Source: a virus. From it: DNA of 64,000 nt. Shown here piece after piece: positions 7,617-39,302 of the stretch; the first letter of the stretch is position 1, and each line of letters opens with the position of its first letter. Below the pieces are notes generated by a model. It was not told where the DNA came from and ran no database searches. It saw only the letters and a program-made list of their open reading frames with translations. Both the position numbers and the translations under genes were made by a program. The stretch is from positions 32,001 to 96,000 of IMG/VR virus record IMGVR_UViG_3300045988_004573; one strand, 5' to 3'.

Positions 7617-7875
7617 TTTGGTAAAGTCATTCCCAGAGAAGGATAGGGAATTGATGCAGAAGATGTTAGATGAAAGGAAGTTTGAAGACTTGTGGGAACT
7701 TGTGAAGTCCTCTATCTATATGGTGAGGAAGTACAAGGACAAGTATGAGGCTGACCTTACTGACATGACTGTGTTCAAGTCTGAACTATCCTCCTATATG
7801 GACCAGTTAGGTCTGGGGGATGATGAGGAGTTTGAGGATGAGGAAGAAATGATTGACACTTATGAAGAGTATTAG
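7591..7875 (+). CDS. Hypothetical small protein with an acidic C-terminus
   Basis: 94-aa ORF ending in GDDEEFEDEEEMIDTYEEY. It is co-oriented with and overlaps both neighbours. Confidence 0.55.
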   Translation: MTPIQRLNSLVKSFPEKDRELMQKMLDERKFEDLWELVKSSIYMVRKYKDKYEADLTDMTVFKSELSSYMDQLGLGDDEEFEDEEEMIDTYEEY

Positions 7876-21991: not shown

Positions 21992-21999
21992 TACTTTTG
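21992..21999 (+). promoter_or_regulatory. Bacteroidota-type -7 promoter box for the RNA polymerase operon
   Basis: TACTTTTG followed by CA, 21 nt upstream of ATG 22021. Confidence 0.5.
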
Positions 22000-22020
22000 C
22001 ACAAACTAATTAAAGAAATT

Positions 22021-25000
22021 ATGAGTAAGACAACTTGTTATACTCCACTCAAAGGAGTAGATGATGTTATAGCAGCTCAAGTACCTTCATGGAATAGTCA
22101 TTATGTAGCTAACCTTAGAGGTATGTATGAAGAAGCTAAAGGCAAGTCTACTACAGATGTGAATGAGTTACTGGCATTTAGAAGGAGCTTAAATGCTAAA
22201 GATGCCAAAGCTCTTACAGATGCTATCACAAACCCAATAGCAGCATATGACCAGCTAAAAGAAGCCTTCTCTACTCAAGAGAGAGTAGACAGGGTGAATA
22301 TGATAGCCAATACATTCTCAGATGTTGTTGATGCTATACAGGAGAGTAATCCTAGTCTTAGCAGAGAGGACATTATTATGGGCTATAAAGACCAGAATGG
22401 TAAGTTTCAGGGTGGTCCAGCATTCATATACAGTGAGGTTTATAAGACCCTTAAAGCTGAGATGGATGAATATGCTGAGAATGGCTATGAGGAAGAGGTA
22501 GAGAAGTACAGACAGGTGTTCAAAAACTGGGGAGCTTTAGTGACTTATGCTAACACCACTCTTAGAGATACAGAAGGTCTTAAGATAGGTACTAAGCTGA
22601 CTTTTGCTGATTCCTCTACTATTGCTGACTATGATGAGAATACTGCTGTAGAGTCATTTGTAGCTGAGGAAGCACCTAGAGAGTCATGGCAGGAAGTGTC
22701 AGAGTCTGTAAGTCCTTTTGGAAGTACCTCTATACTAGTAAGAAGATTGCTAGGAAGATTATCTGGCTATACTTCTGAGAATGAGGAAGATTATGATGAC
22801 CTTGGTCATCTTAGGAGATTACCTGCTGTGCAAGTGCATCAAGCACTCATGGAGACCCTTAGAGGTATGCAGAGCGAGAGCGACATGGTAGCTATCCTAA
22901 AACAGAATATGGATAGTAAGCCATATATTAGCTCTATACTTGAAGAGTTTGCTAAAGACCCTATACTTAGAACTCAGTTCTTTGTAGACTTTAGTAAGGT
23001 CTTTCAGCTATACTCAATGCAGAATGAAACAAGGAAGGGAGGTATTACTACATATAAGAATAGTGTACTCAATATCCTCTCAAGGAAGAGTGCCTATAAG
23101 AGGTATTCAGCAGCACTGGCAACTAGAACTCTTAAGGCTGATAATGCAGTCTTTAGATATGAGGATGAAGGTACTCTAGTGAATGAAGCTAGAGCAAAGC
23201 AGTTAGCTGACTTCATAGAGAAGTACTTAGGTACTGACCAAGACATCTTCAATAAGTTCAATGAGCAGGGATTCTCTAATCAGGATAGGATAGACTTCTA
23301 TAAAGCTGTACTGCCTGTACTTGGTATTAACCTTACTGAATCTGACTATGATGTCCTTGTAAAGGATAATAAGAGGGTTATGTCTCTCAACAGAACTCTT
23401 AAAGACCTTCCTACTATTCTTAGAAAGGCTAAGGATGGTATGAAGTTCCAAGACTTAATTGACTTAAAGATAGGTCAAGGAGCTAGTGAGGGTTATCTAA
23501 AAGAGAAGATAGGTAAGATATTCCAAGTCACAGAGAGCTTAGACAGCAGTAAGAAAGTATTGAGCAGAGTAAGGTTTCAAGATAATACTTACTACAGTGA
23601 TATACAATCCTCCTATCTTGGCAGATTCAGAGATACTATAGATGCTCTGGCAAGAAAGGGCAATAAGGCAAAGCTACAGTCTTACTTAGATGAGCATTTC
23701 TTGAGAAATGATTTCTTTAGAAGCTCTGATGGTAAGATATATAATAAGTGGCTCCAAGACCTTTACTATAGCAACCTTCAAGACCAGAAGAGCTTTGCTA
23801 ATATGTTCACTTACAAGAAGTTCTTAGGCGATGACAATCAGAAATTTGAGGACTTTACAGGTAAGAAGCAAGCTATAACCCTGATAAATGAGTACTTTGC
23901 AGAGTCTAAGGATTATGCTTGGTATCCAGTATTCATATTAGGTGATAGTGGTGCTTCAAAGTGGATTAGAGCTAAGAGATACTCATCAGACCAGATAGTA
24001 ACAGGTCTCTATAATGTATATCTTCAAGAGAAGATATTCCAGAGAGAGATTAAAGAACTCAAGGAAGGACTTAAGAGAGATGGTAAATCTCTTGGAAGTC
24101 TTGCTAAGATAGATGAGACTAAGTTTGGTCTACTGCCATTCCTAAATGAGAAGAAGTACAGTGATATGATAGACATGACAAATATTGAACAGTCTGTCAA
24201 AGCTGCTATTAAAGCTCATCTAAGAGATGCCTTCAATGAGTATATGGTCAAGTTGAATAGGGCAGGTGTCTTAGGTAAGACTCAGAAAGGTGACTATAAG
24301 TACCTGAGTAAGCTAACTAAGTTCACAACTAAAGATAAGCAGAAGTTGACTGGTGATGAGGCAGTTAGAGCTAACCTTATGGATTACTTCTACAATAGTA
24401 AGTTTGCTACTGTAATGCAGATGCAGCTTATGACTGTCAATCCTATATTCTATAAGAATGGGGATAGCACAGATGCCCAGAAGAGATATAAGGAAATTCA
24501 TGCCTCAGGTAATAGAGTAAGTGTAGAAGCTGTAAATCCCTTCACAGGTGAGAGATTCAGTAATAGAGACTATCAGACTACTGTATATTTTGATGATGTT
24601 GAAGTAAACCCAGAAGATACTAATCCTGAGTTTATGGAGGTCATTGCTAAGGTATATGGTAAGGATAGTGATGTCTATAAGACCTATAGGGATAAGACAT
24701 CCTTCACTGATGGTCAAGGTTATAGAACTCTTAAGTCTTATAGAGCTGTGATGGGAATGGCTGGCAAGTGGAATAAGAAATGTGAAGATGCTTATAATGA
24801 GATTGAAAGCATCAGAGCAGATATTAGGTCACAAGGTGGAGAGATAACTGATGAGCAGGCTCAGAGAATAGCTAGCTTAATGGTTACATTCCAACCTATC
24901 AAGCCATTCACTTATACACTTGAAAGATGGACATTAGGTAATAGTGTGTTCCAGATACCTGTACAGATGAAGTATGCTGAGACAGTTATGATACCTGAGT

Positions 25001-28000
25001 TGATGCAGAAGGGCAGTAAGCTGAGAGATATGCTTGAATGGGCTGAACAGAAGGATGTAGATGTGATTGCAGCTACTACTGCTGTAAAGGTAGGCTCATT
25101 TGGTGCTGTGAATGTGAAGGATGCTACTAATAAGGATGAGCTGAATGCCTCTTTAGATAATGCTATTGTTCACAATCTGAGCTATAATGACTATGTTATT
25201 CAGAATAACATTCCTGAGCATATTCAAGGCTCACAGCTATTTGCCACTCAGAGTAGAAAGCTGATATTTGCTGGTTTACAGCAGGTTGATGCTAATGGTA
25301 ACACTATGTACTATGACCACTACACTGATGGCAATAGGGTTAACTTGGGTAATGGCATGGTCAGACTCAATGCTTACAACCTCAACAGGTTCTATATAAG
25401 TCTTATAGCAGCTAACATACTTGAGGACTTTGAAGAATTTTCTTCTACTATAAAGAATCCTGAGAAAGTAAGGCAAGCCTTGGTTCAGATGACTGTTAAT
25501 AACAGCAGGGAGACTAGGGATAACCTTAGAGGTTATGGTAAAGGCTTAGAGCATGACTTCCTTCTAGCATTATTTGAAGGTGGTATTGAACATGATACAG
25601 CAGCATTGTTACTGAGTATGTTCAAGAAGCAAGTCAACAAACAGAAGATAAATGGAGGAAGTGCAGTTCAGGTATCAGCATTTGGTATAACTGGCTATAC
25701 TGAGGACAATAATCTTAGGTTTATCAAAGACCCTAACAATGATGCTAACATTCTATATGCTGAGTGTGAGCTTCCTTGGGACTTAAGCTATACTGATAGT
25801 AATGGTAACAAGGTTGAGCTACAATTCAGTGACTGGTGTAATGCTGATGGTACACTTAAAATAGGTAAGAATGGGGTTTCTCTACTAGAGACTAAATTCC
25901 CAGGAATCACCTCTTTCATAGCATATAGAATACCTACAGAGGATAAGTACTCTATGTTGAACCTAAGAGTAAAGAGATTTACTCAGAAGGTCAATGGTGG
26001 TGGTACTATTAAAGTTCCTGCTCAAGGTACTACTATTGCTGGATTTGACTTTGATATTGACAAGCTCTACTTTATGAGAAGGGAATATAAGGTCAAGAAG
26101 AGTGATAAAGATGGTGAGCTTGGAAGCCAGATAATCAAAGCACTGTTTGGTGAGTCTGAACATACAGATGTAGCTGATGTGTTTGATATACATGACTTCG
26201 AGGAGTTTGATTATTCTAAGCCTGCTTGGGATAAGAGTCAGAGCAGAGTGGCTAGAAACAATATGCTAATCACTCTTATGCAGAAGAGACTTGAAGACCC
26301 TCAGACTATAAAGGATAGGACTACTCCTGGTGGATTTACTCATGCAAGTGCTGCTGCTAAGTATATCAGAACTCTTATGGGTATAGATAATCTGAATTAT
26401 GATTATTCTGACCCTTGGACTATGGTAGTATATAACCAGCAAAACCAAGTAGCTGGAAAGCTGATTGGTATATTTGCTAATCAGAATACCAATAATGCCA
26501 TTGCTTCCTTGATGAAGGAGTTCAGCTTGGTACAACCTATAGCATTTGGTAATCATCCTAATGGACTAAGTAACCTTCTCAACCCTAATGCTCTGACTAA
26601 GGAGCTGTTGGCAGCATCTGTGGATGCTGTTAAAGACCCTGTGCTTAACTTCCTGAACTTGAATACTATTACAGCAGATAGTGCAGGTATGTTATGTAGA
26701 TTAGGGTATAGCTTTGAGGAGATTGGTCTGTTAATGAACCAACCTATAATAAGAGAACTATGTGATTACTGTATGGATAGTAACATGTCTGATATAGATA
26801 CTGCAATAGATAACTTGTTACAGGATTATGGTGCTAGAGGTGATTACGCTGATATTCCATCCTCAAGACTGACTGTAGATGTACTTGCTAAGAATATAAC
26901 TGACTTTAGGGATAACCCAGACATTATGAACAATAGTAACTATGTGTTCAATCAAGCTCAGGTGTTGGAACTATTCAGAAGTATCTATGCTACAGCTAAA
27001 GAGGTAGGAGCTTTTGTTACTAATACTAAGTTCACTGCATCAAATGCAGTTAAATCTACCTTTGGTGGTATGTATGCTCAGCAGGACAGAGTGATTAGGT
27101 ATGTGAATAACCTTAAGACCTCAAAGAACCCTAGACTAAGTATTATAGTGAGTGACTTTGTTGATAGTCCTATTACACTAGGTCTTAATATAGGTAATGT
27201 TGAGGAATATATAGCACAGATACTCAATAATCCTTTTGGATATGAGCAAGTGATGTATGATGCTAATGTCCAAGCTGTAAAGGAACTTGGCAAGTATTAT
27301 CCTTATGGTAATTCAACATACACTAACATTAGGAGCTTTATGACTGACCTGACTAAATCAGGGCTTGATGAAGCTACTATAGACCAGATACATGAGTATA
27401 TGCTAAGGTATATGATTGGTCTGGATGAACACAGTAAGTTCAATCCTGAATATCCCATCAACCTTGATAATGGGGAGACAGTAAGAGCAGAAGACTACTA
27501 TACCAAGTATGTTCCTTTGAAGGTAAGTAACCTTTTAAGAGCAAATAAGGAGTTGAAGAGTCTGCCTATCTTTAGTCTACTCACATTTGAGGAAGGTAGT
27601 GATGGTAATGTACAAATGAAGATTGCTGATAGTGGTGCTTTAACACCTACCCAGAAAGATGAAGTAAGGGATAGCTGGGAAGTACTATTAACTAACCCTG
27701 AGTTATCTCAGGTGGCTAAAGACCTTTATATGTACTCCTACTATCAATCAGGATTTGGATTTGGAGTTATAGGATTCAATCACTTAGCTCCATTAGAGTT
27801 GAAGCTGCAATTAGACCTTAACGGTGAGACTAGTTATACTAGTTTCTTGGATAATGTGTTGGATAACAACATACCAGTTGATGAGGTCAAGTTTGCTCAG
27901 ATGTTTCTTAATACCCACAGAGATAACAATAGGCTAGTATATGAGCCTAAGTCCAAGCAATATAATTACATTAAGAGTTATGTGTACCAGAATGGTATGC

Positions 28001-28500
28001 CAGTAGATAGCTTCATATTAGATGTTACTACTGACAAGAATAAGGTTAAACCCTTCATACTGAGGTCTACCAAAGAAGAGGTACATTACAGACCTGCCAT
28101 ACTAGTAGATGGACTCTTATATGTTGCCAATGGCAGTGCATTCAACAGAAGCACTTCTGGAGCTATGGAGTATAGGCTTGTCAAAGGCAAGGACAATAAA
28201 AAGGTAAGTTTATCTGATATAGGAGTTCAAGATGACAAATCAAGTACTGCTATTGATGGTGAACCTATTGTTGATATTGACACTATGTCTATTGATAATC
28301 TAGTGGATGAATTAGTTAAGAGTCAAGTTAAGACTGGCACTTTGATGGCTGAGGAAGCAGAAGAGGCTTCTAGAGGTATAAGAAGTAACATCTTACAGAC
28401 TACTAAGGAAGATGCAAGAGAGCAACTGATTGGAGCTTTACTTGAGGAGTATAAGAAACTTGGTGTATCATGTAAGTTAAATGGTGAAAAGATTTGTTAA
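22021..28500 (+). CDS. Giant virion-packaged RNA polymerase of crAss-like phages (two-barrel, DxDxD type)
   Basis: 2159 aa from ATG 22021 (the track start at 21997 is TTG). GFDFDIDKLYFM carries the metal-binding DFDID at nt 26047-26061, around residue 1343. Both the size and the motif position are close to what I recall for the characterised crAss-like virion RNAP. Confidence 0.75.
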   Translation: MSKTTCYTPLKGVDDVIAAQVPSWNSHYVANLRGMYEEAKGKSTTDVNELLAFRRSLNAKDAKALTDAITNPIAAYDQLKEAFSTQERVDRVNMIANTFSDVVDAIQESNPSLSREDIIMGYKDQNGKFQGGPAFIYSEVYKTLKAEMDEYAENGYEEEVEKYRQVFKNWGALVTYANTTLRDTEGLKIGTKLTFADSSTIADYDENTAVESFVAEEAPRESWQEVSESVSPFGSTSILVRRLLGRLSGYTSENEEDYDDLGHLRRLPAVQVHQALMETLRGMQSESDMVAILKQNMDSKPYISSILEEFAKDPILRTQFFVDFSKVFQLYSMQNETRKGGITTYKNSVLNILSRKSAYKRYSAALATRTLKADNAVFRYEDEGTLVNEARAKQLADFIEKYLGTDQDIFNKFNEQGFSNQDRIDFYKAVLPVLGINLTESDYDVLVKDNKRVMSLNRTLKDLPTILRKAKDGMKFQDLIDLKIGQGASEGYLKEKIGKIFQVTESLDSSKKVLSRVRFQDNTYYSDIQSSYLGRFRDTIDALARKGNKAKLQSYLDEHFLRNDFFRSSDGKIYNKWLQDLYYSNLQDQKSFANMFTYKKFLGDDNQKFEDFTGKKQAITLINEYFAESKDYAWYPVFILGDSGASKWIRAKRYSSDQIVTGLYNVYLQEKIFQREIKELKEGLKRDGKSLGSLAKIDETKFGLLPFLNEKKYSDMIDMTNIEQSVKAAIKAHLRDAFNEYMVKLNRAGVLGKTQKGDYKYLSKLTKFTTKDKQKLTGDEAVRANLMDYFYNSKFATVMQMQLMTVNPIFYKNGDSTDAQKRYKEIHASGNRVSVEAVNPFTGERFSNRDYQTTVYFDDVEVNPEDTNPEFMEVIAKVYGKDSDVYKTYRDKTSFTDGQGYRTLKSYRAVMGMAGKWNKKCEDAYNEIESIRADIRSQGGEITDEQAQRIASLMVTFQPIKPFTYTLERWTLGNSVFQIPVQMKYAETVMIPELMQKGSKLRDMLEWAEQKDVDVIAATTAVKVGSFGAVNVKDATNKDELNASLDNAIVHNLSYNDYVIQNNIPEHIQGSQLFATQSRKLIFAGLQQVDANGNTMYYDHYTDGNRVNLGNGMVRLNAYNLNRFYISLIAANILEDFEEFSSTIKNPEKVRQALVQMTVNNSRETRDNLRGYGKGLEHDFLLALFEGGIEHDTAALLLSMFKKQVNKQKINGGSAVQVSAFGITGYTEDNNLRFIKDPNNDANILYAECELPWDLSYTDSNGNKVELQFSDWCNADGTLKIGKNGVSLLETKFPGITSFIAYRIPTEDKYSMLNLRVKRFTQKVNGGGTIKVPAQGTTIAGFDFDIDKLYFMRREYKVKKSDKDGELGSQIIKALFGESEHTDVADVFDIHDFEEFDYSKPAWDKSQSRVARNNMLITLMQKRLEDPQTIKDRTTPGGFTHASAAAKYIRTLMGIDNLNYDYSDPWTMVVYNQQNQVAGKLIGIFANQNTNNAIASLMKEFSLVQPIAFGNHPNGLSNLLNPNALTKELLAASVDAVKDPVLNFLNLNTITADSAGMLCRLGYSFEEIGLLMNQPIIRELCDYCMDSNMSDIDTAIDNLLQDYGARGDYADIPSSRLTVDVLAKNITDFRDNPDIMNNSNYVFNQAQVLELFRSIYATAKEVGAFVTNTKFTASNAVKSTFGGMYAQQDRVIRYVNNLKTSKNPRLSIIVSDFVDSPITLGLNIGNVEEYIAQILNNPFGYEQVMYDANVQAVKELGKYYPYGNSTYTNIRSFMTDLTKSGLDEATIDQIHEYMLRYMIGLDEHSKFNPEYPINLDNGETVRAEDYYTKYVPLKVSNLLRANKELKSLPIFSLLTFEEGSDGNVQMKIADSGALTPTQKDEVRDSWEVLLTNPELSQVAKDLYMYSYYQSGFGFGVIGFNHLAPLELKLQLDLNGETSYTSFLDNVLDNNIPVDEVKFAQMFLNTHRDNNRLVYEPKSKQYNYIKSYVYQNGMPVDSFILDVTTDKNKVKPFILRSTKEEVHYRPAILVDGLLYVANGSAFNRSTSGAMEYRLVKGKDNKKVSLSDIGVQDDKSSTAIDGEPIVDIDTMSIDNLVDELVKSQVKTGTLMAEEAEEASRGIRSNILQTTKEDAREQLIGALLEEYKKLGVSCKLNGEKIC

Positions 28501-28502
28501 GT

Positions 28503-31500
28503 ATGGCAGAGAGTTGTGTATTTAAGCCAACTGTCAGAAACAAAGAAGGTAAGGAAGTGAATAGTAGGTTGTTTGACAACCTACTTCACTTCTCTTCCAA
28601 TGACAGGGAGTTTGCTAAAAAGTATTATTTCATAGGTACTAATGATGAGTTCCTAAGAACCAATGCTAGGCATGTAGAGTATGATGAGAATGGTGAGATT
28701 ACATTCAAGTCACTTAAGAACCTAGTATCACTGGATATATCTTCTGAGAAGATTATTGACCAGTTAAACAAAGACATAAGCTCTGGAGAGCATGAGTATG
28801 GAGAAGCAGTATCACTGATGACTAGCTTCAACAATAATAGCCCATATAACGATGAGTATATGGCTACTATAAGTACAGTTGAGGGAGGTAAGGCAAATCT
28901 ACAGGTTGTTAGAAAGACTACAGCTAATCAGACAGCTCTTGAAGAGACATTGACTAACAAAAGCTTGTTTGATAGAATAAAGCAAGCTGTTGAAAGAGTA
29001 GGAGGAAGTATAGACTTTATAGATGAAAGCTATAGCAAGTATGATACTATCAATGCTAAGAAAGCAGAGTCTGGTCTATATAATGTGATATTCCTCTCAA
29101 AGAAAGGCAATCTTACTGCTGATATGGCAGAAGAGGCAGGTCACTTTGCTGTAGGGGCATTAGGTAATAACCCCCTAGTAAAGAGATTGGAAGCACTTTG
29201 TACTCCAGAAGTACAAGAGGGAATACTAGGTGAGCATTACAGAGATGTGCAGGGAAGAAAGAACCCTAGGAGAGAGACTGCTGGTTTCCTAGTTGGTCAA
29301 TATATAATGAATGAGGTAGACCAAGAGTCTACACTTAGCAGACTTGCAGGAAGAATAGTAAATCTAGCTAAGAGAATGTTCTACAGACTCACTCTAGATG
29401 ATGTAGGTAGAATGAGAGAAGAGGCTAAGGCTATAGCTAAGAATATAGCTAGGGGATTTATGTCTGGTGATAATGCTGGTAGTATTGAGAATGCTTTAGA
29501 GAATAGGGAAGTCCTGTATTCATCTGTAGATTCTGTACCAGTTAGTTCCTTCAAGGATGTTATTCAGCAGCTAAACTTACTAGCTTCTGAAATGTCAGCA
29601 GTAGATAAGACATTATATAGGAAGTGGAAGGATATTGAAGCTAATACTGCTATAGGCAGGTTATTTGAAAACCCCTCATTCTTTGCTGATATGGCTGCTA
29701 TAGATGGCTTATCTGTAGCACTAACACAGCTAGCAGATAGTGTTCCTGAAATGATTGACATGTTGGACTCTGTTAACTATAATCCTGATGAAGTTCCTGC
29801 TAATGCTAAGAAGCTGAGACAAGTAAGCCTATTTGTTCAGGAGTCCATTGCTATCATGGGTATTATAGATAATATGCTTACCAGTGATGAGGTACAGTTG
29901 AAGGAGGATGCCAGAGATGCTCTTGATAAAGCATATAAGAACTTAAGCTCTCTTATTAAGGGAGCAGATAAGCTAGAGGTAAACCTACTAAAGAAAGAGA
30001 GGAAGCTATATCTATCCTTCTTAAAAGATATGTATGGGGGTGAGTATGTTGAAAGGGCAGCTAGAGTTGTCTTTAACTTTAACAAGAGAAAGCTTGAAAG
30101 AGTAGCTGAGAGTAGGGAATATCTATCAAAAGCTATGGAATCTCTTGATAGAGATGATAACTTTATGAATAGATACATAGCATCTATGGCTAACAGTAGT
30201 GATATAATCAACCAGTTAGCTTATAAAACCAAAGCTTCTGCCAACAAGTTTGCTGATGACAATACTATTAAAGCGTGGAATGACATAAGAGCTTTGGAAC
30301 AGAGAGTCAAGAAGGCTAAGGTTGATACAAGGAGGCTGTTAGAAGTATCTGCTAGAGATGGTAAGCTGACTGGTAACTATATATCCAAGTATAATTGGGG
30401 TGATTGGGAGAATGACTGGTATGAGTTTAAGAACAAGTGTAAGGAAGATTTCCTCAGTGACCCATCTATTGAGAGTAAGACTCAGATAGAAAGGGAATAC
30501 TTATGGGATGTCTACTTTAGACCTCTAGCTAAGGACTGGCATAAATCCCACTCCACATATGACCAAACCACTCAAAGACCTATGCCTAATGATGGCTATA
30601 GAAACCATAACTATGATAGATTGACAGATACTGAGAAGGCAGCTCTAGATGACATATTGGAGTTGAAGGGGAGTCTTGATGACCTCCTAATCTATCAGTC
30701 TTATAATGGTGAAATGGTTGAAGCAGCTCATACTCATCTTTATAGAATGCCTCAGTTCAGAGGAAGTACTCAGAATAGAATTGAGAACTTAAAGATGACT
30801 AACCCTCTAGGTAAAGCTGTAAGTGGTGCTATAAGGCAAAACTTAATCAATACTTTTACTATTACCAGTGAAGATAGAGACTATGGTAGTGCTATGACAC
30901 ATAATACTATAGATGAGGATGTATTCTCAGATAGGCTTGACTTCGAGAAGGAGAAAGTGAAGAGAGTTCCTTTATATGGTATAAACAAGCTGAAAGATAT
31001 GTCAGAGTTAAGCACTGATATATTCAATGGTTTGTTACAGTATGCAGCTATGGCTAATACTTATGTAGCTACATCCAGTGTAGTAGATATATTGGAGACA
31101 GGTAGGGATGTATTAGCTAATAGAAGAGTGAAAGGTCTAAAGAGAGAAGTAGAGAGGGATAAGAAGTCAAGAGTATTTGGAAGATATTGTGACTTTCTTG
31201 ATGCTCAGGTATATAACCTATATGCAAATAGCAGGTTGAAGTTTGGTCAAATAGCTCTTACTAAGGTGATAGGCTTCTTTGGAGGTTTGGCATCTAAGGT
31301 GTTCTTGGGTGGTAATGTCGCTGGTGGTATGGTCAATGTTATGACTGGCTTTAATGAAATCACTAAGGAAGCTATAGCAGGAGAAGTATATACATTAGCT
31401 GACCTTACTAAGGCTAATGCCCTTTACTTTAAGTACTTACCAGAGAACTGGTTAGAGGCAGGTATGGGTGTGAAGAACAATAAAGTGTCACTCTTTATGA

Positions 31501-32609
31501 AGAGGTTCAATGTTCAGAACAACCTAGATACTGAGACTAGAAACTGGAGTACTAGAGAAAGCAGACTCACTAGGCTTAACCCATTTGGTAATAACCTAAT
31601 GTTGCCCTATAAGAGTGGAGACCATTATATGCAGTCTATGTCCTACTTGGCAGCAGCTAACCATTATAAGTTCTTAGACACTAATGGAGAGACTATATCA
31701 CTATGGGATGCCCTAGAAGTGAAGAACATAGATGATAGTAACCCTAAAGCTGGTAGGACATTAGAGCTTAAAGAAGGAGTACTATATATAGACCCTGAAA
31801 CTAACCAGACTAGAGAATGGAATCTTGATGATGAGGTTAAATTCCAGAACCTATGTAGAGAGACCAACAATAGAATGCACGGTATCTATAACAGAATGGA
31901 TAAGACAGCCTTCCATAACACTTGGTATGGTCAAGCTGCTTTAGCCATGAGAGGTTATGCACTTGGTCTATTATATAGAAGATTCTCTTCTAACCACTAC
32001 AGTGTGTCTTTAGGTAGAGAGTCCGAGGGAAGCTTAGTTACAGCATCAAAGGTATTTGTCAATATGTTTGGAGGTACTAAGAACTTCATTCCATCCCTCA
32101 GAGCATTGCTATGCCCCTTTGGTGATAGTGTAAAGAACTCATTACTTGAGATGGGCTTCTCAGTGGAGCAGTATAGGAATATGAGAAGAAACTGGGCTGA
32201 CTTTGCTCTTATAGGTATGTTATGGGTACTCAAAGCACTCACAGCTAAGTCTGAGGATGACGATGATGATGACGATGATACAACATCAGGACTCATATAT
32301 TACTTTGCAAGTAGGTTGTACATGGAACAGAATGCCTACAATACTCCTTGGGGTATATGGCAGGAGCAAAAGAGTGTGTTAGACTGGATGCCTAGTGGTG
32401 TATCAGTAGCAGGTCAAATACTTGATATAAGTAGACTTATGATTACTCAAGAGGAGTATAAGACTAGTTCAGCTACCCATGAGAAAGGAGATAAGAAGTG
32501 GGAATATAAGATTGGCTCATATATACCTTACTACAGGAGTACAAGGGTATTAGAGCATCCTTATGAAGCAGCTAAGTCATATGAATATGGTAGAGCTACT
32601 TATAAGTAA
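28503..32609 (+). CDS. Large virion-associated protein co-transcribed with the RNAP, possibly an ejected or cargo protein
   Basis: 1368 aa from ATG 28503 (the track start at 28494 is TTG). Coiled-coil-rich, with a glycine-zipper-like hydrophobic segment (VIGFFGGLASKVFLGGNVAGGMVNVMTGF) and a poly-Asp run at nt 32256-32279. Confidence 0.7.
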   Translation: MAESCVFKPTVRNKEGKEVNSRLFDNLLHFSSNDREFAKKYYFIGTNDEFLRTNARHVEYDENGEITFKSLKNLVSLDISSEKIIDQLNKDISSGEHEYGEAVSLMTSFNNNSPYNDEYMATISTVEGGKANLQVVRKTTANQTALEETLTNKSLFDRIKQAVERVGGSIDFIDESYSKYDTINAKKAESGLYNVIFLSKKGNLTADMAEEAGHFAVGALGNNPLVKRLEALCTPEVQEGILGEHYRDVQGRKNPRRETAGFLVGQYIMNEVDQESTLSRLAGRIVNLAKRMFYRLTLDDVGRMREEAKAIAKNIARGFMSGDNAGSIENALENREVLYSSVDSVPVSSFKDVIQQLNLLASEMSAVDKTLYRKWKDIEANTAIGRLFENPSFFADMAAIDGLSVALTQLADSVPEMIDMLDSVNYNPDEVPANAKKLRQVSLFVQESIAIMGIIDNMLTSDEVQLKEDARDALDKAYKNLSSLIKGADKLEVNLLKKERKLYLSFLKDMYGGEYVERAARVVFNFNKRKLERVAESREYLSKAMESLDRDDNFMNRYIASMANSSDIINQLAYKTKASANKFADDNTIKAWNDIRALEQRVKKAKVDTRRLLEVSARDGKLTGNYISKYNWGDWENDWYEFKNKCKEDFLSDPSIESKTQIEREYLWDVYFRPLAKDWHKSHSTYDQTTQRPMPNDGYRNHNYDRLTDTEKAALDDILELKGSLDDLLIYQSYNGEMVEAAHTHLYRMPQFRGSTQNRIENLKMTNPLGKAVSGAIRQNLINTFTITSEDRDYGSAMTHNTIDEDVFSDRLDFEKEKVKRVPLYGINKLKDMSELSTDIFNGLLQYAAMANTYVATSSVVDILETGRDVLANRRVKGLKREVERDKKSRVFGRYCDFLDAQVYNLYANSRLKFGQIALTKVIGFFGGLASKVFLGGNVAGGMVNVMTGFNEITKEAIAGEVYTLADLTKANALYFKYLPENWLEAGMGVKNNKVSLFMKRFNVQNNLDTETRNWSTRESRLTRLNPFGNNLMLPYKSGDHYMQSMSYLAAANHYKFLDTNGETISLWDALEVKNIDDSNPKAGRTLELKEGVLYIDPETNQTREWNLDDEVKFQNLCRETNNRMHGIYNRMDKTAFHNTWYGQAALAMRGYALGLLYRRFSSNHYSVSLGRESEGSLVTASKVFVNMFGGTKNFIPSLRALLCPFGDSVKNSLLEMGFSVEQYRNMRRNWADFALIGMLWVLKALTAKSEDDDDDDDDTTSGLIYYFASRLYMEQNAYNTPWGIWQEQKSVLDWMPSGVSVAGQILDISRLMITQEEYKTSSATHEKGDKKWEYKIGSYIPYYRSTRVLEHPYEAAKSYEYGRATYK

Positions 32610-32625
32610 TCCCTATAAAACAGTA

Positions 32626-32662
32626 AAGGCAAGAGAGGTTATCCTCCCTTGCCTTTTTTTTT
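32626..32662. terminator. Bidirectional rho-independent terminator between the convergent gene blocks
   Basis: AAGGCAAGAGAGG (32626-38) pairs with CCTCCCTTGCCTT (32643-55), giving 13 bp with one mismatch and loop TTAT. T9 follows on the + strand, and a T-rich tract follows on the - strand. Confidence 0.75.
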
Positions 32663-35600
32663 ATCCTAAGCAGTCAAGCTCATGTTGCTTCTCCTGTTTA
32701 GTCCAACTATTGAAGAACTCTTCAATGTCTATTGTCTCACTATACTTAGTTCTAAGTGCTTCCTGCTGTTCAGGTGATAAACTACTAAAGCTTATACCTG
32801 TTGGGTTACTTTCAACCTTTATAGGTTTAGCTCCAGCTTTCCTAACTATAGGCTTTCTCTTAGTTCTAACCTTACCTACAGTAAGCTCACCATCTCTCTT
32901 TACTTGAGGCTCTGGCTTAGTTTCTGCACTTTCAACCTTACTCTCTGTAGGAGTAATCTCTCCTATCAGTGCTTTCTCAGACGCAGACAACTTATCATAC
33001 TGTATTGATATAGGGGATTCAGGTATCTGTCCTACTTCTCCTAGAACAGGGTTAGCCTGCTTATACTCCTTATCATTTAACAGTAGTTGATTACCTTTGG
33101 CTACTGAGTAGGTATTATTGTCGTTAGGTGCAGGATATTCTACATGTATAGGTATGATATTTAATGACTTAACCTTAATACCATACTTGCCTTCCAAGAA
33201 CTGCTTATATAGTGATAGCTGTCTTGAGTATTTAGCTGCTTTTTCCTCACTTATATTCTTAGCTCTGTGGGTCTTCATATCAAAGATATAGAAGTTACCC
33301 TCCCTATCATAAGCTAGTAAGTCAAGTGTTCCAGCAACTGCTATCTCATGTACTCCACCATTACTGTCAGTAACCTGTAGAGTACCTGTAGCTACTATAT
33401 CTCTAGGTATAACTGTCAATCCCTGAGCATCAAGGTAATTCTTGAACTTCTGTAACTGTTCAGCAAACCTATTAAGAGCCTCTTTAGAAGTATTAGGATA
33501 AGTCATCTCTACTGACCTACCATCTTTTAACCAACCTTCTGGACTAGAAGTGATAAGTCCATTAAAGAAATCCCTTACAAACTCATCAATACCAGTACCT
33601 ATGTTGGTAGATGGTGTAACCCAAGGACTATTAGGGTCAAATCTTTCACCAGCCTGCTCATCAGCTTGTATGATTGAAGTAACTCTGGCATATGTTTTAC
33701 CTGTCCTTGTATTAACATAGGTAAGACCATCTTCTGATAGTTGTATCTCCCTAGAATCTGCTTCTATCCTTTCACTAACTTTTTGAGCCTCTTCCATAGC
33801 AGTAGTAATTTCATTCCTAACTTCTTTACCTTGCTCAGTGAGACCAGTGTCAGTATCTACCTTTTCACCTGATTGAGTAGTAGCTGTTCCTGTATCTTGA
33901 CTACTAGTAGGAGTAGAGTTATCTGCATTAACTACTGTAGGAGTAGGATTAGCAGGTACAGGCTCTCTTAGGGCTACTGGGCTTGATACCTCAACCCCAC
34001 TAATAACTCTTTCAAGTCTGTCAATTCCTACTCTTAAGATGTTGTCATATATAAGGTTAGTTACATTTTCCTCCTTATAGTGCTTAGTATTAGGAGTATA
34101 GTAGCTGGGGTCTTTATCAACTTGCCAGTTAACACCTTGTCTGAAAGAACCACTAGGCATAAGCAGATTAGATAGTATTACTGCCATATTTTCAGCAGTT
34201 ACTTCTTTCTCTGTTACACTATTTACTATTCTTCCTAAGTTCTCATCACCCAAGTATAGGTCTAATCCAAGACTACCATCTACATTAGCAGGTCTTATAG
34301 AGTACTCAGCACTTGTTGAGTATATATGTCTCCTCAACATATTGTTGATTCCCTCTATTATAGATAGAGCCTTACTTTCACCAGTGAAGTTAGTACCATC
34401 AGAAGTTAGTTCTGTTAGGTCATTATTCTTAACAAGACTGTTAAGTACTCTTATGAAGTCTCTAGTTCTGCTGTTAAAGTAAACTATATCAGTAGCATTA
34501 CCTGTTGATAGTACCTCTGCAAGTGACTTTCCATTTCTAGGGCTGGTAGTCTCATCCAGAGTCTTAGTCAAGACTGGTATCTCAGATACAGACTCATCTC
34601 CTTTCATAGTAGGCAACCTATAGTATAGTGTAGGTTTACCAGCCTTATCCTTTTTAGCAAAGAGTCTACTTGCAACCTTTCTAACATACTTGTTATATGC
34701 TGCATTCCTTCTTATAGGGTCTTGAGTAGTGTCCTCAATTATAGCTCTGTCTTCTGGAGAGAGGTCTTCACTTATAAGTGAAGCAAAGTCTCTGTCAGTT
34801 TCTCTTGATGTACTTATATTAAGAGGAGGACTAGCCACTATTACACTTGAAGTTACTTTTCTGTTACCTGCTGATATAATCTTGTTAGGTTGCTCAATAG
34901 CAAGTTGTCTTATCTGCCCTGCTCTGCTATCTAGTTCAGTTCTTGGCAGTACTCCAATAGGTTGGTATCTCTTATTGCCAATCACAATAGGACCATCACC
35001 ATCCTCAACTATAGCTAGTACTGGTAGATGTTGCTCATCAGTATAAGCAGTAGAGCTGTTCTTCATACTCTCCTTGACTCCTGTAGTTATATCATCAAGA
35101 GCAGCATAGAATACTACTGACCTATTTCCTGACTTTCTACTAAGCTTACCACTTCTAAGATATTCATCAACTTTCCACTCCCTGAACTTCCTACTTAAGA
35201 AACCACTAAGATTGCTGTTTATTCTAGCTAATGATATGGTAGGCTTCTGCTGTGGAACTTCTGTAGGTGAAGTAACCTTTTCAGCTTCTTTCTTCTCTAC
35301 TTTAATAGCATGACTCGCTTGTTGCAGTAGAGAACCAGACCTCTCATTTATATCACCCCCCTGAGTGGCACTACCTAATAACTTTACTGCTTCTTTAGCT
35401 ATAGCCTCCTGTAGTTCTTCTGTAGAGTTATAGTGTTTACTTCCCAGTTTGTTTATTGCACTTATAGCAGCTTGCTTAGCATCCTCATCATATATAGCAC
35501 TGGCATTCCTAACTGCATTTATAGCTTGCTCTGCTGCTGTAAGTACTTCTCCATCATTATTATTGATGAAATCATCTGATAGTACAGTAACTCCTTCACC

Positions 35601-38600
35601 CTCAGTTTCACTAGGTTGAGTAGGTGTAGTAACAGTTTCAGGAGCTTTCTCAGCTTCCTTCTCAGCAGCTATCTGCTTACCAGACTCTTCAAGATTTGAA
35701 GTAGCATCATCAGATGCAAATATACCTGTCAGAGGTGCTGGTTTATCAGCAGCTACTGGTTTCTCCTCAGCTTCTCTTGTAACTTCCTCTCTTACTTCCT
35801 CATTCTTCTTGTAACTTTCCAAAGCTCTCTTATATGAGTCTACCACAGTTCCTATATTCTCCAAAGAGATTTTCATATTGTCTGGTAGCTTCTGGTTGAG
35901 TGCTTCAATCCAAGTTACTAAGTTTGATTTGCCACTCTCATCTGCTGATGTTAAAGCAGCTACAGCATTATCATAGTTGCTTATATCTACATTCTTTCTA
36001 GCTAAGAACTTAGTCATTGCAGCTACTAAGTCCTTATCTTGCTCTGAAATATCACTGAAAGCATCATTCTTGAGTAACTGATTGTATATTCCCTCAGTAA
36101 CCTCATCATCTTTCTTGTATCTCTGATATAGGGGATTATCCTTTAGAGTTTGGTCAAGCACTACTGCCTCATAATCATCAGCTTCAAACAGAGCATTATC
36201 TACAGCTTCTGCAAATGCAGAGTAGTCCTGTATCTCATTGAGCTTCTTATAGGACTTCTCAGCACCCTCAAGCCTCTTAGTCAGCCTCAACCTATTCTCT
36301 ATATTAGATAGTATGTTTGGGTTCTTAAGAGCTGCATTGTACTGACCTAAGAATGTCATCTGAGCATCATTTATTCTAGCAGCATCCTCTACTTTATTCA
36401 TAAAGTCAGATGTAGCTGCTGTACCTTTCTCTACTAGTCTTGCAATAACATCCTGCTGCTCTTGACTATACTTTCCCCTATTCTTTGGGTTAAGCATTCT
36501 ATATCTATCAACAGGACTAAGTGACATAATATCTGACTCACTCAATACAGGTGTAGTTCCTTCTTCAAGTCCCTTAGATACTCTCTTGTAAGCTGCCATA
36601 GCTTTCTTCTTACTGTCTTGAAGGGTCTTTAGTTGCTTATTGAGGACAGACAGCTTACTCTTTTGTTCATCTGATAGTATTGACTTATTCTTCTCTAAGT
36701 TACTTATCTTAGTCTGGTAAGCCTCAATATCCTTATCAAATGCAGTAGGTTCTGATATAGAGCCATGTCTAGCTATATACTTCTTCTGCTCATCTGTCAA
36801 TGTAGAAGCAATACCTCCACCATAGCCAGAGAGTAATTCATTTTCAAGCTGAGTAGCTCTTTCTCTCCAGTCATCCATACTAAGTTTGCCATATATAAGA
36901 GCTTCCTTAGTCTCTTGTGGAATACTATTACCTAAGCTCTTCTCAAGGTCAGCAGTAGCTACTTGAACTTTCTGCATAACATCAAGCATACTCTGAGCAT
37001 CTTTCTTGATGTCTTCAAGAGGTCTATCATCATATTGGGCTATCTGCTGAGCCATCTCATCACCCTCCTGAGCATTAAGTATATCCATATACCTTTGCAT
37101 ATAAGCATCATATAATGGAGTACCCTTCAATTGCTCAAGCATGAAGTAGTCCTGTACTTGCTTACCTAGTCTACTATTTCTATAGCTAAACTCATCACCC
37201 TCATCAGAAGCCTGTTGCATACTTCTAGCCCATCCTAATGAACCTCTTAAAGAAGTAAGCCTCTCTCTGTTATTGCCTTGAGCTAGCCACTCATTGAGTG
37301 CCTTAGCTGACTCTCTTCTATCCTGATTCTCCTGCTTGTCATTATAATAACTCTCTATGAATGGGTTTCTCCAAAGGTTTCTAGCTACAGCACCTACCTT
37401 GCCTAGAGTACTCTTACCTTCTAATGATACCCTATCACCTTTAGATAGCAAAGCATTGACATTAGGAGTACCCATAGCTTGACCTAATGCACCATATATA
37501 CCAGATTGAATAGCATCTTTACTTATAGCTTTCCTACCTGCTGCTGCAAAGGCTGCACCTAGGTTATCAGACATACTATCTACTATGGCATCATCTGCTA
37601 CACCATCATATCTTTGTGCTATATAATTAGCTAAGTCATTCTCAGCAGCACCTCTAGAGAAAGCATCAGATACATCTTGGCTATACTCTTCAAGACCTTC
37701 ACCAATCATTTCTTTAGCCATATTCCAAGCCATTTGCTTCTTGGTGAGTTCTCTAGCTACTACATTACCAGCATCATCAAGAGAATATCTATTTCCTGCA
37801 AATAGCTTTCCTACCTTACTTCTACTAAGTGCCTCTCTTGTCTTACCATTAAACATAGTAGCCTTTAGAGTCATATTAGCAGTTCCATTGATAAAGGAGT
37901 TAATAGTAAAGTTAGTTAAGGCTGCTTTATCTGCATCCTCTTCTGCTCTCTTTAGAGCATCCTCATACATTGGTTGGAACTCATCCCATACCTGTTGTCT
38001 TATTCTTTGATAAGCACCCTTGGCATCTCTTGAGTAGACTCCTTCACCAGTTCTTGATAATGGAGTAACATCCAGCCAGTGTTGGAATCTCTTCTGAACC
38101 TCTTCCTCCATTCTCTTGACTTGCTCCTCTCCTATCATCTTCTTAGCATCCTCAAGATAGTCCTGCTTTGTATTAAGAGCATTCAAAGCACCTTCACCCT
38201 GACCTACCAGTGCAGGAACTACATAAGCATTATATCTTCTTTGCCAAGTATTTATGCCTTGTAGAGCTTTATTGACATTACTAGCAGTCTCTGCTGTAGC
38301 AGCTAACTTACTACCCATAGTAGCATACTTCATAGTATTGAAGACCCTATTACCTATAGCAGTAAGACCATAACCTTCAAGCATTGAAGCAACTGTGAAG
38401 CCAGACTGCTGCATAAGCTCTGGGATAGTATTTACACTAAAGATATTATCCCATAGGTTCTCCTGTTCCTCAGTAGTTCTTATGACTTCAAGTCTGTTAT
38501 ATGCCTTCTCTGGGTCACCCTCTGTAAACATAGTTCCTTGCTTCATCACTTGGTCTCCATATCTAATCCAAGAATTATCTATGAACTGAGACCACAGGTT

Positions 38601-39302
38601 ATCTAGATAACCCTCTTTCTGGTTCTCTCCAAGTAATCTATCAAGACCTGTCAAGGCACTAAGACCTCCAGTGATATTACCAGCGAATGATATAGTACCT
38701 CCAACTATATTAGCACTCATACCAGCTAGACCATTCCATATCTTATCTGCTAGTGGCTGATTCTCAGATACTTCATCATGTATTCTAGCAGCCATCTTCT
38801 TAGCTGCTGTCTCTGGACCAAAAGCTTCTGACTCAGTTTGGTAAATGGACATAAGCTCTACCTTCTTATTACCATCCAGAGGGAAGTACTCAGTACCTTT
38901 GAATCTCTTATAGTATGGTGAGACTTCATCCAACATCTTGTCAAAGTCTTCCCATTGCCTTCTAGTGCTTCCTATAAGAGTACCATTGTTAGCAACACCA
39001 GTATTGTATTCCTCCTCATAGGTCTGCTTAGTATTCTGATATACTTGCAGGTTCTCTATGTCATCATCTGGGGAAGAGAGATATATACTATCTCTCTTCT
39101 CAGGTGACATACCTTTTAGGATGTTATAGTCTTCCCTATTCCCAAACTTATTCTTAAAGGAGCTATTTCTAAAGTACCTATCCTTTCTGTTATCATCCCA
39201 GTTAGTGTACCCTAACTTATTAAGTTCCTCTATATTATCCTTCTCCCACTGTGCCCTATCTTGAGCTGTGAGACCTTTAACATTAAATACAAAGTCTGAC
39301 AT
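32661..39302 (-). CDS. Giant (2213 aa) virion/tail-associated protein with a C-terminal PD-(D/E)xK nuclease domain
   Basis: Uninterrupted ORF, last in the - strand block. Long coiled-coil and low-complexity regions. RecB-like nuclease motifs lie around residues 1871-2056 (see findings). Confidence 0.8.
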   Translation of the reverse strand: MSDFVFNVKGLTAQDRAQWEKDNIEELNKLGYTNWDDNRKDRYFRNSSFKNKFGNREDYNILKGMSPEKRDSIYLSSPDDDIENLQVYQNTKQTYEEEYNTGVANNGTLIGSTRRQWEDFDKMLDEVSPYYKRFKGTEYFPLDGNKKVELMSIYQTESEAFGPETAAKKMAARIHDEVSENQPLADKIWNGLAGMSANIVGGTISFAGNITGGLSALTGLDRLLGENQKEGYLDNLWSQFIDNSWIRYGDQVMKQGTMFTEGDPEKAYNRLEVIRTTEEQENLWDNIFSVNTIPELMQQSGFTVASMLEGYGLTAIGNRVFNTMKYATMGSKLAATAETASNVNKALQGINTWQRRYNAYVVPALVGQGEGALNALNTKQDYLEDAKKMIGEEQVKRMEEEVQKRFQHWLDVTPLSRTGEGVYSRDAKGAYQRIRQQVWDEFQPMYEDALKRAEEDADKAALTNFTINSFINGTANMTLKATMFNGKTREALSRSKVGKLFAGNRYSLDDAGNVVARELTKKQMAWNMAKEMIGEGLEEYSQDVSDAFSRGAAENDLANYIAQRYDGVADDAIVDSMSDNLGAAFAAAGRKAISKDAIQSGIYGALGQAMGTPNVNALLSKGDRVSLEGKSTLGKVGAVARNLWRNPFIESYYNDKQENQDRRESAKALNEWLAQGNNRERLTSLRGSLGWARSMQQASDEGDEFSYRNSRLGKQVQDYFMLEQLKGTPLYDAYMQRYMDILNAQEGDEMAQQIAQYDDRPLEDIKKDAQSMLDVMQKVQVATADLEKSLGNSIPQETKEALIYGKLSMDDWRERATQLENELLSGYGGGIASTLTDEQKKYIARHGSISEPTAFDKDIEAYQTKISNLEKNKSILSDEQKSKLSVLNKQLKTLQDSKKKAMAAYKRVSKGLEEGTTPVLSESDIMSLSPVDRYRMLNPKNRGKYSQEQQDVIARLVEKGTAATSDFMNKVEDAARINDAQMTFLGQYNAALKNPNILSNIENRLRLTKRLEGAEKSYKKLNEIQDYSAFAEAVDNALFEADDYEAVVLDQTLKDNPLYQRYKKDDEVTEGIYNQLLKNDAFSDISEQDKDLVAAMTKFLARKNVDISNYDNAVAALTSADESGKSNLVTWIEALNQKLPDNMKISLENIGTVVDSYKRALESYKKNEEVREEVTREAEEKPVAADKPAPLTGIFASDDATSNLEESGKQIAAEKEAEKAPETVTTPTQPSETEGEGVTVLSDDFINNNDGEVLTAAEQAINAVRNASAIYDEDAKQAAISAINKLGSKHYNSTEELQEAIAKEAVKLLGSATQGGDINERSGSLLQQASHAIKVEKKEAEKVTSPTEVPQQKPTISLARINSNLSGFLSRKFREWKVDEYLRSGKLSRKSGNRSVVFYAALDDITTGVKESMKNSSTAYTDEQHLPVLAIVEDGDGPIVIGNKRYQPIGVLPRTELDSRAGQIRQLAIEQPNKIISAGNRKVTSSVIVASPPLNISTSRETDRDFASLISEDLSPEDRAIIEDTTQDPIRRNAAYNKYVRKVASRLFAKKDKAGKPTLYYRLPTMKGDESVSEIPVLTKTLDETTSPRNGKSLAEVLSTGNATDIVYFNSRTRDFIRVLNSLVKNNDLTELTSDGTNFTGESKALSIIEGINNMLRRHIYSTSAEYSIRPANVDGSLGLDLYLGDENLGRIVNSVTEKEVTAENMAVILSNLLMPSGSFRQGVNWQVDKDPSYYTPNTKHYKEENVTNLIYDNILRVGIDRLERVISGVEVSSPVALREPVPANPTPTVVNADNSTPTSSQDTGTATTQSGEKVDTDTGLTEQGKEVRNEITTAMEEAQKVSERIEADSREIQLSEDGLTYVNTRTGKTYARVTSIIQADEQAGERFDPNSPWVTPSTNIGTGIDEFVRDFFNGLITSSPEGWLKDGRSVEMTYPNTSKEALNRFAEQLQKFKNYLDAQGLTVIPRDIVATGTLQVTDSNGGVHEIAVAGTLDLLAYDREGNFYIFDMKTHRAKNISEEKAAKYSRQLSLYKQFLEGKYGIKVKSLNIIPIHVEYPAPNDNNTYSVAKGNQLLLNDKEYKQANPVLGEVGQIPESPISIQYDKLSASEKALIGEITPTESKVESAETKPEPQVKRDGELTVGKVRTKRKPIVRKAGAKPIKVESNPTGISFSSLSPEQQEALRTKYSETIDIEEFFNSWTKQEKQHELDCLG

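Follow-up and report, generated by a model that had tools for sequence, protein, structure and literature searches.

The 64,000-nucleotide stretch analyzed here (the window; positions 32,001 to 96,000 of IMG/VR record IMGVR_UViG_3300045988_004573) comes from a crAss-like phage of the family Steigviridae. Its minus strand encodes a giant gp47-like protein of 2213 amino acids (aa), and a predicted RecB-family PD-(D/E)XK nuclease domain lies near the C-terminus of this protein. The crAss-like phages are the most abundant human gut viruses. The start of their infection is poorly understood, including how the template of their virion RNA polymerase (vRNAP), which prefers single-stranded DNA in vitro, is prepared inside the cell. 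The open reading frame (ORF) and its parts are as follows.

32661..39302, minus strand: gp47-like ORF, 2213 aa, assigned by synteny and annotation with crAss001 and Kolpuevirus 'frurule' and by BLASTP to crAss001 gp47.
32970..33752, minus strand: RecB-family PD-(D/E)XK nuclease domain, residues ~1851-2111, predicted from Pfam, PHROG, AlphaFold2, Foldseek and conservation.
33564..33614, minus strand: motif I, PSTNIGTGIDEFVRDFF, residues 1897-1913, containing GTGID, with D1906 on the first core helix.
33498..33548, minus strand: lineage-specific 17-residue beta-hairpin insertion, SSPEGWLKDGRSVEMTY, residues 1919-1935, in the loop after the motif-I helix (an alignment gap in most homologues; model strands 78-81 and 84-87).
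33306..33338, minus strand: motif II, VAGTLDLLAYD, residues 1989-1999, with catalytic D1994, invariant in alignments A1 and A2.
33270..33293, minus strand: motif III, FYIFDMKT, residues 2004-2011, with catalytic D2008 and K2010.
33192..33221, minus strand: motif IV, QLSLYKQFLE, residues 2028-2037, with the QxxxY signature (Q2028/Y2032) of RecB/lambda-Exo/Cas4-type nucleases.
32799..32957, minus strand: Lys/Arg-rich linker, residues 2116-2168, poorly conserved, with 13 K/R in 53 residues, predicted to be disordered.
32664..32798, minus strand: three-helix mini-domain, residues 2169-2213 (helices within model residues 338-373), with a conserved W ... E ... C.

A preliminary description of the window had proposed a RecB/Cas4-like nuclease at 33135-33692 (minus strand), which corresponds exactly to residues 1871-2056 of the ORF. 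The peptides quoted for it are all present: YARVTSIIQ at 1871-1879, GTGIDEFVRDFF within 1897-1913, VAGTLDLLAYD...FYIFDMKT at 1989-2011 and QLSLYKQFLE at 2028-2037. The domain as defined by its fold (~1851-2111) is larger, and the span first noted falls inside it.

Profile, fold and residue-conservation evidence agree on a RecB-family nuclease at this place. Pfam PDDEXK_1 (PF12705), whose curated cut-off is 22, scored 24.7 bits with the whole protein and 27.0 bits with the C-terminal 363 aa. PHROG_298 ('exonuclease') matched with E=5.8e-8, and the NCBIfam AddA model matched through its C-terminal nuclease region (E=1.4e-5). A single-sequence phmmer search of the PDB gave a marginal Exo5 match alone (E=1.1) and a profile search was needed; the profile of 16 family members matched the nuclease domain of AdnA (6ppu_A, E=0.0019) with motifs II-IV aligned. 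A Pfam match to Imm44 (E=0.03-0.11, below the cut-off) was set aside as noise.

Residues 1840-2213 were modeled with AlphaFold2 from 26 sequences, and the model reached a mean predicted local distance difference test (pLDDT) score of 84.4, with values >90 in the nuclease core. The structure prediction proposed in the preliminary description thus returned a nuclease fold. The secondary structure elements follow the order alpha-beta-beta-beta-alpha-beta (helix 56-74, strands 130-139, 145-154 and 164-173, helix 180-201 and strand 204-216 in model numbering), all with pLDDT >90. In a Foldseek search of the PDB, the top matches were AddA (3u44_A, E=1e-4, probability 1.00), AdnA (probability 1.00), human Exo5, the Argonaute-associated Cas4 protein ACE1, the Cas4 protein SSO0001 and MGME1.

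The catalytic residues were followed through 37 database homologues and 80 viral-contig loci, with motifs II-IV scored in 70 copies and motif I in 75. GTxxD was present in all 75 copies matched by the motif-I pattern, and the residue after it was variable (E/N/M/S/T/R/I). D1906, a conserved acidic residue, takes the place of the His/Asp that serves as metal ligand in RecB-type nucleases, and the motif-I Asp (D48 of alignment A2) is invariant in that alignment. All 70 scored copies have motif II as G-T-[LVI]-D-[LI]-L, which aligns with 'VRGRLDRLERD' of AdnA. Motif III reads D-M-K-T in 70/70 scored copies, D-V-K-T in crAss001 gp47 and D-F-K-T in cr1_1 of the Suoliviridae. QxxxY, in the helix after strand 3, was likewise found in 70/70, its Q and Y being invariant in alignments A1 and A2. 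Thus D1906, D1994, D2008, K2010, Q2028 and Y2032 are invariant or nearly so among relatives, and the loss of catalytic D/D/K residues in orthologues, named at the outset as what would speak against a nuclease, was not seen. The domain is present with its catalytic motifs in the giant orthologues of crAss001, DAC15/DAC17, 'frurule', cr126_1 and cr106_1. crAss001 gp47 keeps GTSVD, VDIL, YDVKT and QLSAY, and cr1_1 keeps motifs II-IV as GTLDLL, DFKT and QLTLY.

When compared with 11 diverged full-length orthologues, the nuclease was 47-64% identical and the upstream 1850 residues 18-34%, which makes the nuclease by far the best-conserved segment and implies, from the sequence comparison, strong purifying selection on it. 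On fold and conservation together, we regard it as very highly probable that the domain is a genuine, catalytically competent nuclease fold. With the closest relatives (L007/L008 and P0002, ~91% identical overall), the nuclease segment was lower, at 85% (window 33300-33600), and the divergence is centered on the hairpin insertion and the next helix (residues ~1915-1955). This pattern suggests recent recombination or module exchange inside the domain.

The name RecB/Cas4-like held in its first half. The nuclease domain has zero cysteines, and because of this we place it with the Fe-S-less RecB/AddA/AdnA type, its nearest relatives, and not with Cas4 or Exo5 proper. Membership of Cas4 in the strict sense was excluded: residues 1-2210 of the protein have no Cys, so no four-cysteine Fe-S cluster can form, and the context is a crAss cargo/RNA polymerase block, not a CRISPR-cas locus.

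The gp47-like gene lies among virion genes.

39302-40639, minus strand: Cargo protein 2 (Pfam crAss_CARGO2, E=2.6e-112), immediately upstream in the same operon-like run.
40636-43320, minus strand: Cargo protein 1 (Pfam crAss_CARG1, E=2.6e-60), upstream in the same run.
28494..32609, plus strand: gp49 orthologue by synteny, 1371 aa, a transcription-block virion protein; in some other phages the nuclease carrier instead of gp47.
21997..28500, plus strand: gp50 orthologue, the virion RNA polymerase, with DFDID at residue 1351 of the listed ORF and homology to phi14:2 vRNAP.
32625..32656: hairpin terminator with a 14-bp stem, in the 51 bp that separate the convergent gp47-like and gp49-like genes (1 found vs. 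0.1 expected in shuffles).

The gene order is muzzle gp44, Cargo 1, Cargo 2 and the gp47-like ORF, with gp49 and the DFDID RNA polymerase gp50 running convergently toward it; the ATG of the gp47-like ORF and the stop codon of Cargo 2 overlap. Besides the two cargo proteins, Pfam crAss families identified ring proteins, tail hub A, the auxiliary capsid protein and the major capsid protein upstream. In BLASTP with crAss001 gp47, the N-terminal region was 21% identical over 868 columns (E=2e-10) and the nuclease 27% (E=2e-15). Full-length identity to the corresponding ORFs of three other loci (L009, L049 and L066) was 26-34%, with E as low as 0. Among annotated relatives the closest are cr126_1, cr106_1, Kolpuevirus 'frurule' and DAC15/17, with 48-52% identity over the C-terminal 363 aa; the IMG/VR contigs L005 and L006 are 93% identical. 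Because the gene order is conserved and similarity to crAss001 gp47 is detectable also outside the nuclease domain, the gp47-like ORF is, by sequence and synteny, the orthologue of crAss001 gp47, the virion cargo or 'RNA-polymerase-associated' protein. A 114-aa ORF on the opposite strand (32563-32907, plus) overlaps the C-terminal coding region and the terminator, and is most likely spurious.

Mass spectrometry showed crAss001 gp47 (262.5 kDa) to be present in virions, and together with gp49 and gp50 it was placed in the capsid cargo zone, for ejection into the host (PMC10172136). It is transcribed late, unlike gp49 and gp50 (PMC8375218). In phi14:2, three large proteins are annotated as present in the virion (GenBank notes). 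We therefore take the gp47-like protein to be quite probably virion-delivered. The preliminary description had called it a virion protein, by position likely a tail or ejected one; synteny and the presence of crAss001 gp47 in virions bear out the virion and ejected parts, and the tail reading was ruled out, the orthologue being an internal capsid cargo of the 'transcription block'. In the upstream 1850 of the 2213 residues, no other enzymatic domain was found by Pfam or PHROGs, nor an HExxH or DxDxD motif.

As the preliminary description had it, the nuclease is followed by a Lys/Arg-rich segment and a small conserved-looking domain, here the linker at 2116-2168 (pLDDT 30-38, model residues 277-329) and the three-helix domain at 2169-2213 (pLDDT 79-91 by 10-residue block). 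A hidden Markov model (HMM) of the mini-domain matched only the extreme C-termini of gp47-type ORFs of one sub-clade, including a relative (L004) with an intervening ART domain. It found no paralogue in the window, and no match at E<1e-3 in crAss001 and gp49-carrier genomes. Its use as an encapsidation tag common to the cargo proteins was therefore excluded.

The mini-domain contains the sole Cys of the 2213-aa protein, C2211 (window 32670-32672), three residues from the C-terminus. At the window background Cys frequency of 0.9%, the probability of one or no Cys in 2213 residues is ~5e-8. A sole or near-sole Cys 1-7 residues from the C-terminus was also found in gp47 of crAss001, frurule and cr128_1 and in nearly all of the ~60 IMG/VR gp47-type ORFs examined. 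The gp49 orthologues have a Cys at position 4-6 (60/63 ORFs), and those of gp50 usually a C-terminal Cys plus one near the N-terminus. In phi14:2 the three proteins have as their only cysteines C1797 of gp078 (its last residue), C3 and C2179 of the 2180-aa vRNAP gp077, and C3 of gp076. IAS virus has a split polymerase, and the additional piece, gp055, bears Cys at 5 and 834 of 837. The pattern thus spans all three transcription-block virion proteins, and Cys is depleted elsewhere in them. Structural intermolecular disulfides are present in crAss001 virions; the terminal cysteines are mentioned neither in the crAss001 structural paper (PMC10172136) nor in the vRNAP preprint (bioRxiv 10.1101/2020.03.07.982082). 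The positions of these residues suggest that terminal disulfides, or a shared metal, link the three proteins head-to-tail in gene order as a 'stitched polyprotein'. Such a chain would mimic the single polyprotein reported for some crAss-like phages (bioRxiv 10.1101/2020.03.07.982082). The pattern may bear on how the cargo proteins are organized and ejected.

In the window protein PDDEXK_1 is the sole recognizable domain, whereas relatives combine the nuclease with ART-PolyVal and HExxH motifs. The post-motif-I loop that carries the hairpin in the window hosts whole nested domains in two of them. In one (L068, a 2810-aa carrier ORF), ART-PolyVal (E=1.2e-12) and an HEYTH motif are nested between motif I and the remainder of the domain. 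In the other (L063, 2955 aa), an insert of ~630 aa that Pfam does not match has a GSGKT P-loop and an 'HDLDF' stretch that may be nucleotidyltransferase-like. ART-PolyVal stands directly before motif I in P0015/L003, and downstream of the nuclease in P0028/L004 and L070. To judge from these predicted architectures, the nuclease module tolerates and attracts other enzymatic modules.

The carrier itself also changes. Among the 80 loci, each with a single module copy, 62 have it in a gp47 orthologue, at or close to the C-terminus, and 10 have it within a gp49 orthologue (nine at residues ~525-800, L064 at 1074-1338); 7 loci are fragmentary or too diverged for carrier assignment. In the remaining one (L079, IMGVR_UViG_3300045988_150119, locus ~8.4-17.9 kb), a 3154-aa ORF has the nuclease (522-786) fused N-terminally to the RNA polymerase (DFDID at residue 2248). 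A segment of this ORF upstream of the nuclease looks Rossmann-type by eye from its sequence, and Pfam finds no domain there. IAS virus has the module in its gp49-like protein gp057 (residues 531-778), and the protein at the gp47 position, gp058, is without it. The Suoliviridae cr4_1 (gp27) and cr1_1 (gp077) bear it in a gp49-like protein beside a giant DFDxD protein. The cr4_1 carrier gene (locus L085) has 18 in-frame stops in the standard bacterial code, and the neighboring giant gene has 31, in keeping with the reassignment of stop codons described in crAss-like phages.

At the loci examined, Cargo 1, Cargo 2 and the muzzle protein were always free of the module. In Intestiviridae (e.g., prototype crAssphage NC_024711/JQ995537), which were searched by tblastn only, there was no match. 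The whole genome of Cellulophaga phage phi14:2 has no copy, only a stand-alone RecB-like gene in its replication block, and the nuclease as a universal accessory of the crAss vRNAP was thereby excluded. The distribution makes it very likely that this is a portable module tied to the transcription-block cargo.

These data suggest a course of events in four steps: (i) judging by the orthologue, the protein would be synthesized late, stored with gp50 and gp49 as capsid cargo, and released into the cytoplasm either before the DNA or together with it; (ii) given the invariant catalytic residues and the fold, the refolded domain should be an active Mg2+-dependent nuclease, and because it is carried on packaged, ejected proteins it would be available in the cell before any phage gene expression; (iii) as comparative genomics shows, selection keeps the portable module within the transcription-block proteins predicted to be delivered to the cytoplasm, whichever of the three carries it; and (iv) the substrate would be the entering phage genome end, where resection or nicking would expose single-stranded DNA for the co-ejected vRNAP. 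The same resection could also help circularization. The last step would have its analogy in AddAB/AdnAB, where a RecB-type nuclease is attached to a translocating motor.

Three arguments favor the phage's own end as substrate. At time zero the sole free DNA end where the cargo emerges is that of the phage genome. The nearest relatives, moreover, are nucleases normally tethered to a motor, and AddA, AdnA, Exo5, Cas4 and MGME1 are end-dependent or directed to single-stranded DNA. Thirdly, the vRNAP of phi14:2 transcribes single-stranded or denatured DNA very efficiently, native phi14:2 DNA weakly, and double-stranded M13 DNA not at all (bioRxiv 10.1101/2020.03.07.982082). Because that enzyme favors single-stranded DNA, a co-delivered resecting nuclease would have an obvious use. 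The model also fits the finding that the module occurs again and again next to or within the polymerase proteins.

As a whole, the explanation we tentatively prefer is a gp47-borne, virion-delivered RecB-family nuclease with a basic linker and a helical mini-domain, acting on the entering genome end. That the nuclease acts on the phage's own entering DNA in the service of the vRNAP is a possibility we hold slightly more tentatively. A more specific version, in our view unlikely, makes the nuclease the missing partner of the single-strand-preferring vRNAP, held to it by fusion (L079), by insertion into gp49 or by a disulfide between the gp47 Cys and the N-terminal Cys of the polymerase, and stripping one strand for early transcription. 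If true, transcription initiation would be nuclease-dependent, with the RNA polymerase in the motor role of the AddAB/RecBCD helicases.

Several points weigh against a nuclease that works on the phage's own DNA for the vRNAP. We found no published biochemical or genetic test of the function of the module in the literature. The genome of phi14:2, whose vRNAP has been shown to work in vivo, is without the module, so that crAss vRNAPs in general cannot require it. The passage of Yutin et al. (2021; PMC7886860) on this protein likewise gives the module to 'some phages' only. The fusion to RNA polymerase was seen in one metagenomic contig (L079), and the association with gp47, gp49 and gp50 is confounded, since these may be the sole cargo proteins that reach the cytoplasm. 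The effector-type neighbors predicted in relatives (ART-PolyVal and HExxH motifs) point to a role in conflict. Resecting one's own genome is, finally, risky.

The conflict role can be stated as a DNase injected against the host chromosome, plasmids or rival phage, a 'polyvalent protein' effector for host shut-off, nucleotide supply or competitor exclusion. It would diffuse away from where the phage enters and act beside the ADP-ribosyltransferase and peptidase modules that related phages have in this region. We consider this doubtful, though nearly as likely as the preferred explanation. ART-PolyVal before, after or nested in the nuclease of the relatives named above (P0015/L003, P0028/L004, L068 and L070) speaks for it, as do the variable position and patchy distribution of the module. 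Delivery of such enzymes has been predicted for polyvalent virion proteins, but the 2017 catalogue of them contains no DNases except ParB-like ones (PMC5512222). Infection by crAss001 inhibits host transcription genome-wide at 10-30 min (PMC8375218), with which an injected DNase is compatible. The domain is, however, far better conserved than its carriers, unlike typical fast-evolving conflict effectors. Helicase-free RecB-family domains mostly need DNA ends or single-stranded DNA, which an intact circular chromosome lacks. No immunity or self-protection is evident for the co-injected phage DNA. The dose would also be low, with few copies per virion (~six of each RNA-polymerase-associated protein as an example; PMC10172136).

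Handling or protection of the genome end, independent of transcription, seems to us quite improbable. The protein would bind the entering end, with the basic linker as a clamp, and either trim it for circularization or replication initiation or shield it from AddAB/RecBCD-type exonucleases. The nuclease family is end-directed and the disordered K/R-rich linker adjoins the domain, but gp49-inserted modules have neither the basic linker nor the C-terminal mini-domain. The invariant D/D/K/Q/Y residues argue for chemistry over mere binding, and for recombination the phage has a separate RecE-like exonuclease (7853-8899). The place of the domain does fit: it sits at the trailing, C-terminal end of a protein that should exit the capsid directly ahead of the DNA or the next cargo protein, and an N-to-C direction of ejection has been proposed for gp45 (PMC10172136).

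A nuclease directed at RNA, processing early transcripts or degrading host mRNA, is very unlikely. All the strong matches are DNA nucleases of the RecB/AddA/AdnA/Exo5/Cas4/MGME1 group with QxxxY, and Rat1-Rai1 appears among the weak Foldseek matches, at rank 50. The physical association with the RNA polymerase block, including one direct fusion, would suit such a role, and PD-(D/E)XK RNases do exist, some of them on viral polymerases or RNA-processing enzymes. A catalytically dead or purely structural relic is extremely improbable, with catalytic positions invariant over ~80 copies, two virus families and three carrier proteins, and with the nuclease as the best-conserved part of the protein.

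An intact, strongly conserved nuclease that travels with the vRNAP, and that has persisted through several moves among the three co-packaged giant proteins, is a testable candidate for an early-infection function, be it to process the template or the genome end or to attack DNA of the host or of rivals. The presence of the domain in the gp47-like protein is already known from the literature and databases. A PDDEXK domain in the large transcription-block protein of some crAss-like phages was stated by Yutin et al. (2021, Nat Commun 12:1044; PMC7886860), in one sentence and figures; where that paper deals with the domain, it does so without catalytic-residue analysis, structure, carrier switching or function. 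A 2023 review repeats the statement. UniProt names the cr126_1 and cr116_1 orthologues 'PD-(D/E)XK endonuclease-like domain-containing protein', and the GenBank record of cr4_1 notes 'exonuclease' on the carrier gene, whereas the crAss001 structural paper does not mention a nuclease (PMC10172136). Added here are the residues, constructs, carrier switching, nested ART domains, the Suoliviridae range and the terminal-cysteine pattern.

Elsewhere in the window there is one further nuclease of the superfamily.

7853..8899 (ATG at 7862): stand-alone nuclease, DUF3799/PHROG_412, exonuclease VIII-like, the 'PDDEXK_b' of Yutin et al., in the replication/recombination block.

The preliminary description had seen the same motif set in this gene, and at the motif level it is there (FGSAVD ... 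D ... IDLKT ... QAKLY). The two share superfamily and motif order but belong to different Pfam/PHROG families, and paralogy was rejected at the sequence level (BLASTP E=0.7; no match with the family HMM). A separate 'PDDEXK_a' gene in the structural block of the window was found neither by Pfam in 19 ORFs nor by HMM. Inside the tail-ring gene cluster are two GIY-YIG/NUMOD3 homing-endonuclease-like ORFs, at 48423-49199 and 54019-54621 (both minus strand). The Ring 1 match at 47747-48433 covers, in its best stretch, profile positions 140-268 only, and an unassigned 186-aa ORF (49189-49749) lies just past the endonuclease gene; insertion of a mobile intron or homing endonuclease may have split ring protein 1.

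The nearest known counterparts are crAss001 gp47 (AXQ62690.1, 'putative RNA-polymerase subunit') and the DAC15/DAC17, 'frurule', cr126_1 and cr106_1 orthologues, which have the same gene position, PDDEXK module, catalytic motifs and single C-terminal Cys. Their size is similar (2241-2341 aa vs. 2213 aa). In crAss001 gp47 the nuclease lies at ~1715-1870 and ~470 more residues follow, whereas in the window protein it is near the C-terminus; the two nucleases are 27% identical (N-terminal region ~21%). When compared with the Kolpuevirus/cr126_1-type copies (48-52% over the C-terminal 363 aa), the window copy has the 17-residue hairpin of its own.

Among cellular enzymes, the nuclease domains of AddA (3u44_A), AdnA (6ppr_A and 6ppu_A) and RecB are the best structural and profile matches, with the same motif order (acidic/His on helix 1, D, (D/E)xK, QxxxY) and no Fe-S cluster. 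Those domains are fused to the UvrD-like helicase motors of bacterial double-strand-break repair, whereas the window domain, at ~13-18% identity, sits on a phage cargo protein without a helicase. Cas4, Exo5 and ACE1 share the superfamily and QxxxY (Foldseek E ~1e-3, and a weak Pfam Exo5 match), but they have a four-cysteine Fe-S cluster.

In its predicted mode of delivery, the gp47-like protein resembles polyvalent proteins (Iyer et al., 2017; PMC5512222), T4 Alt and N4 vRNAP, which are giant virion-packaged multidomain proteins that deliver enzymes with the DNA. The 2017 survey lists no PD-(D/E)XK DNases and does not cover crAss-like phages (PMC5512222). ART-PolyVal, the defining domain of polyvalent proteins, adjoins or nests in the nuclease of relatives, whereas the window protein has one recognizable enzymatic domain, the nuclease.

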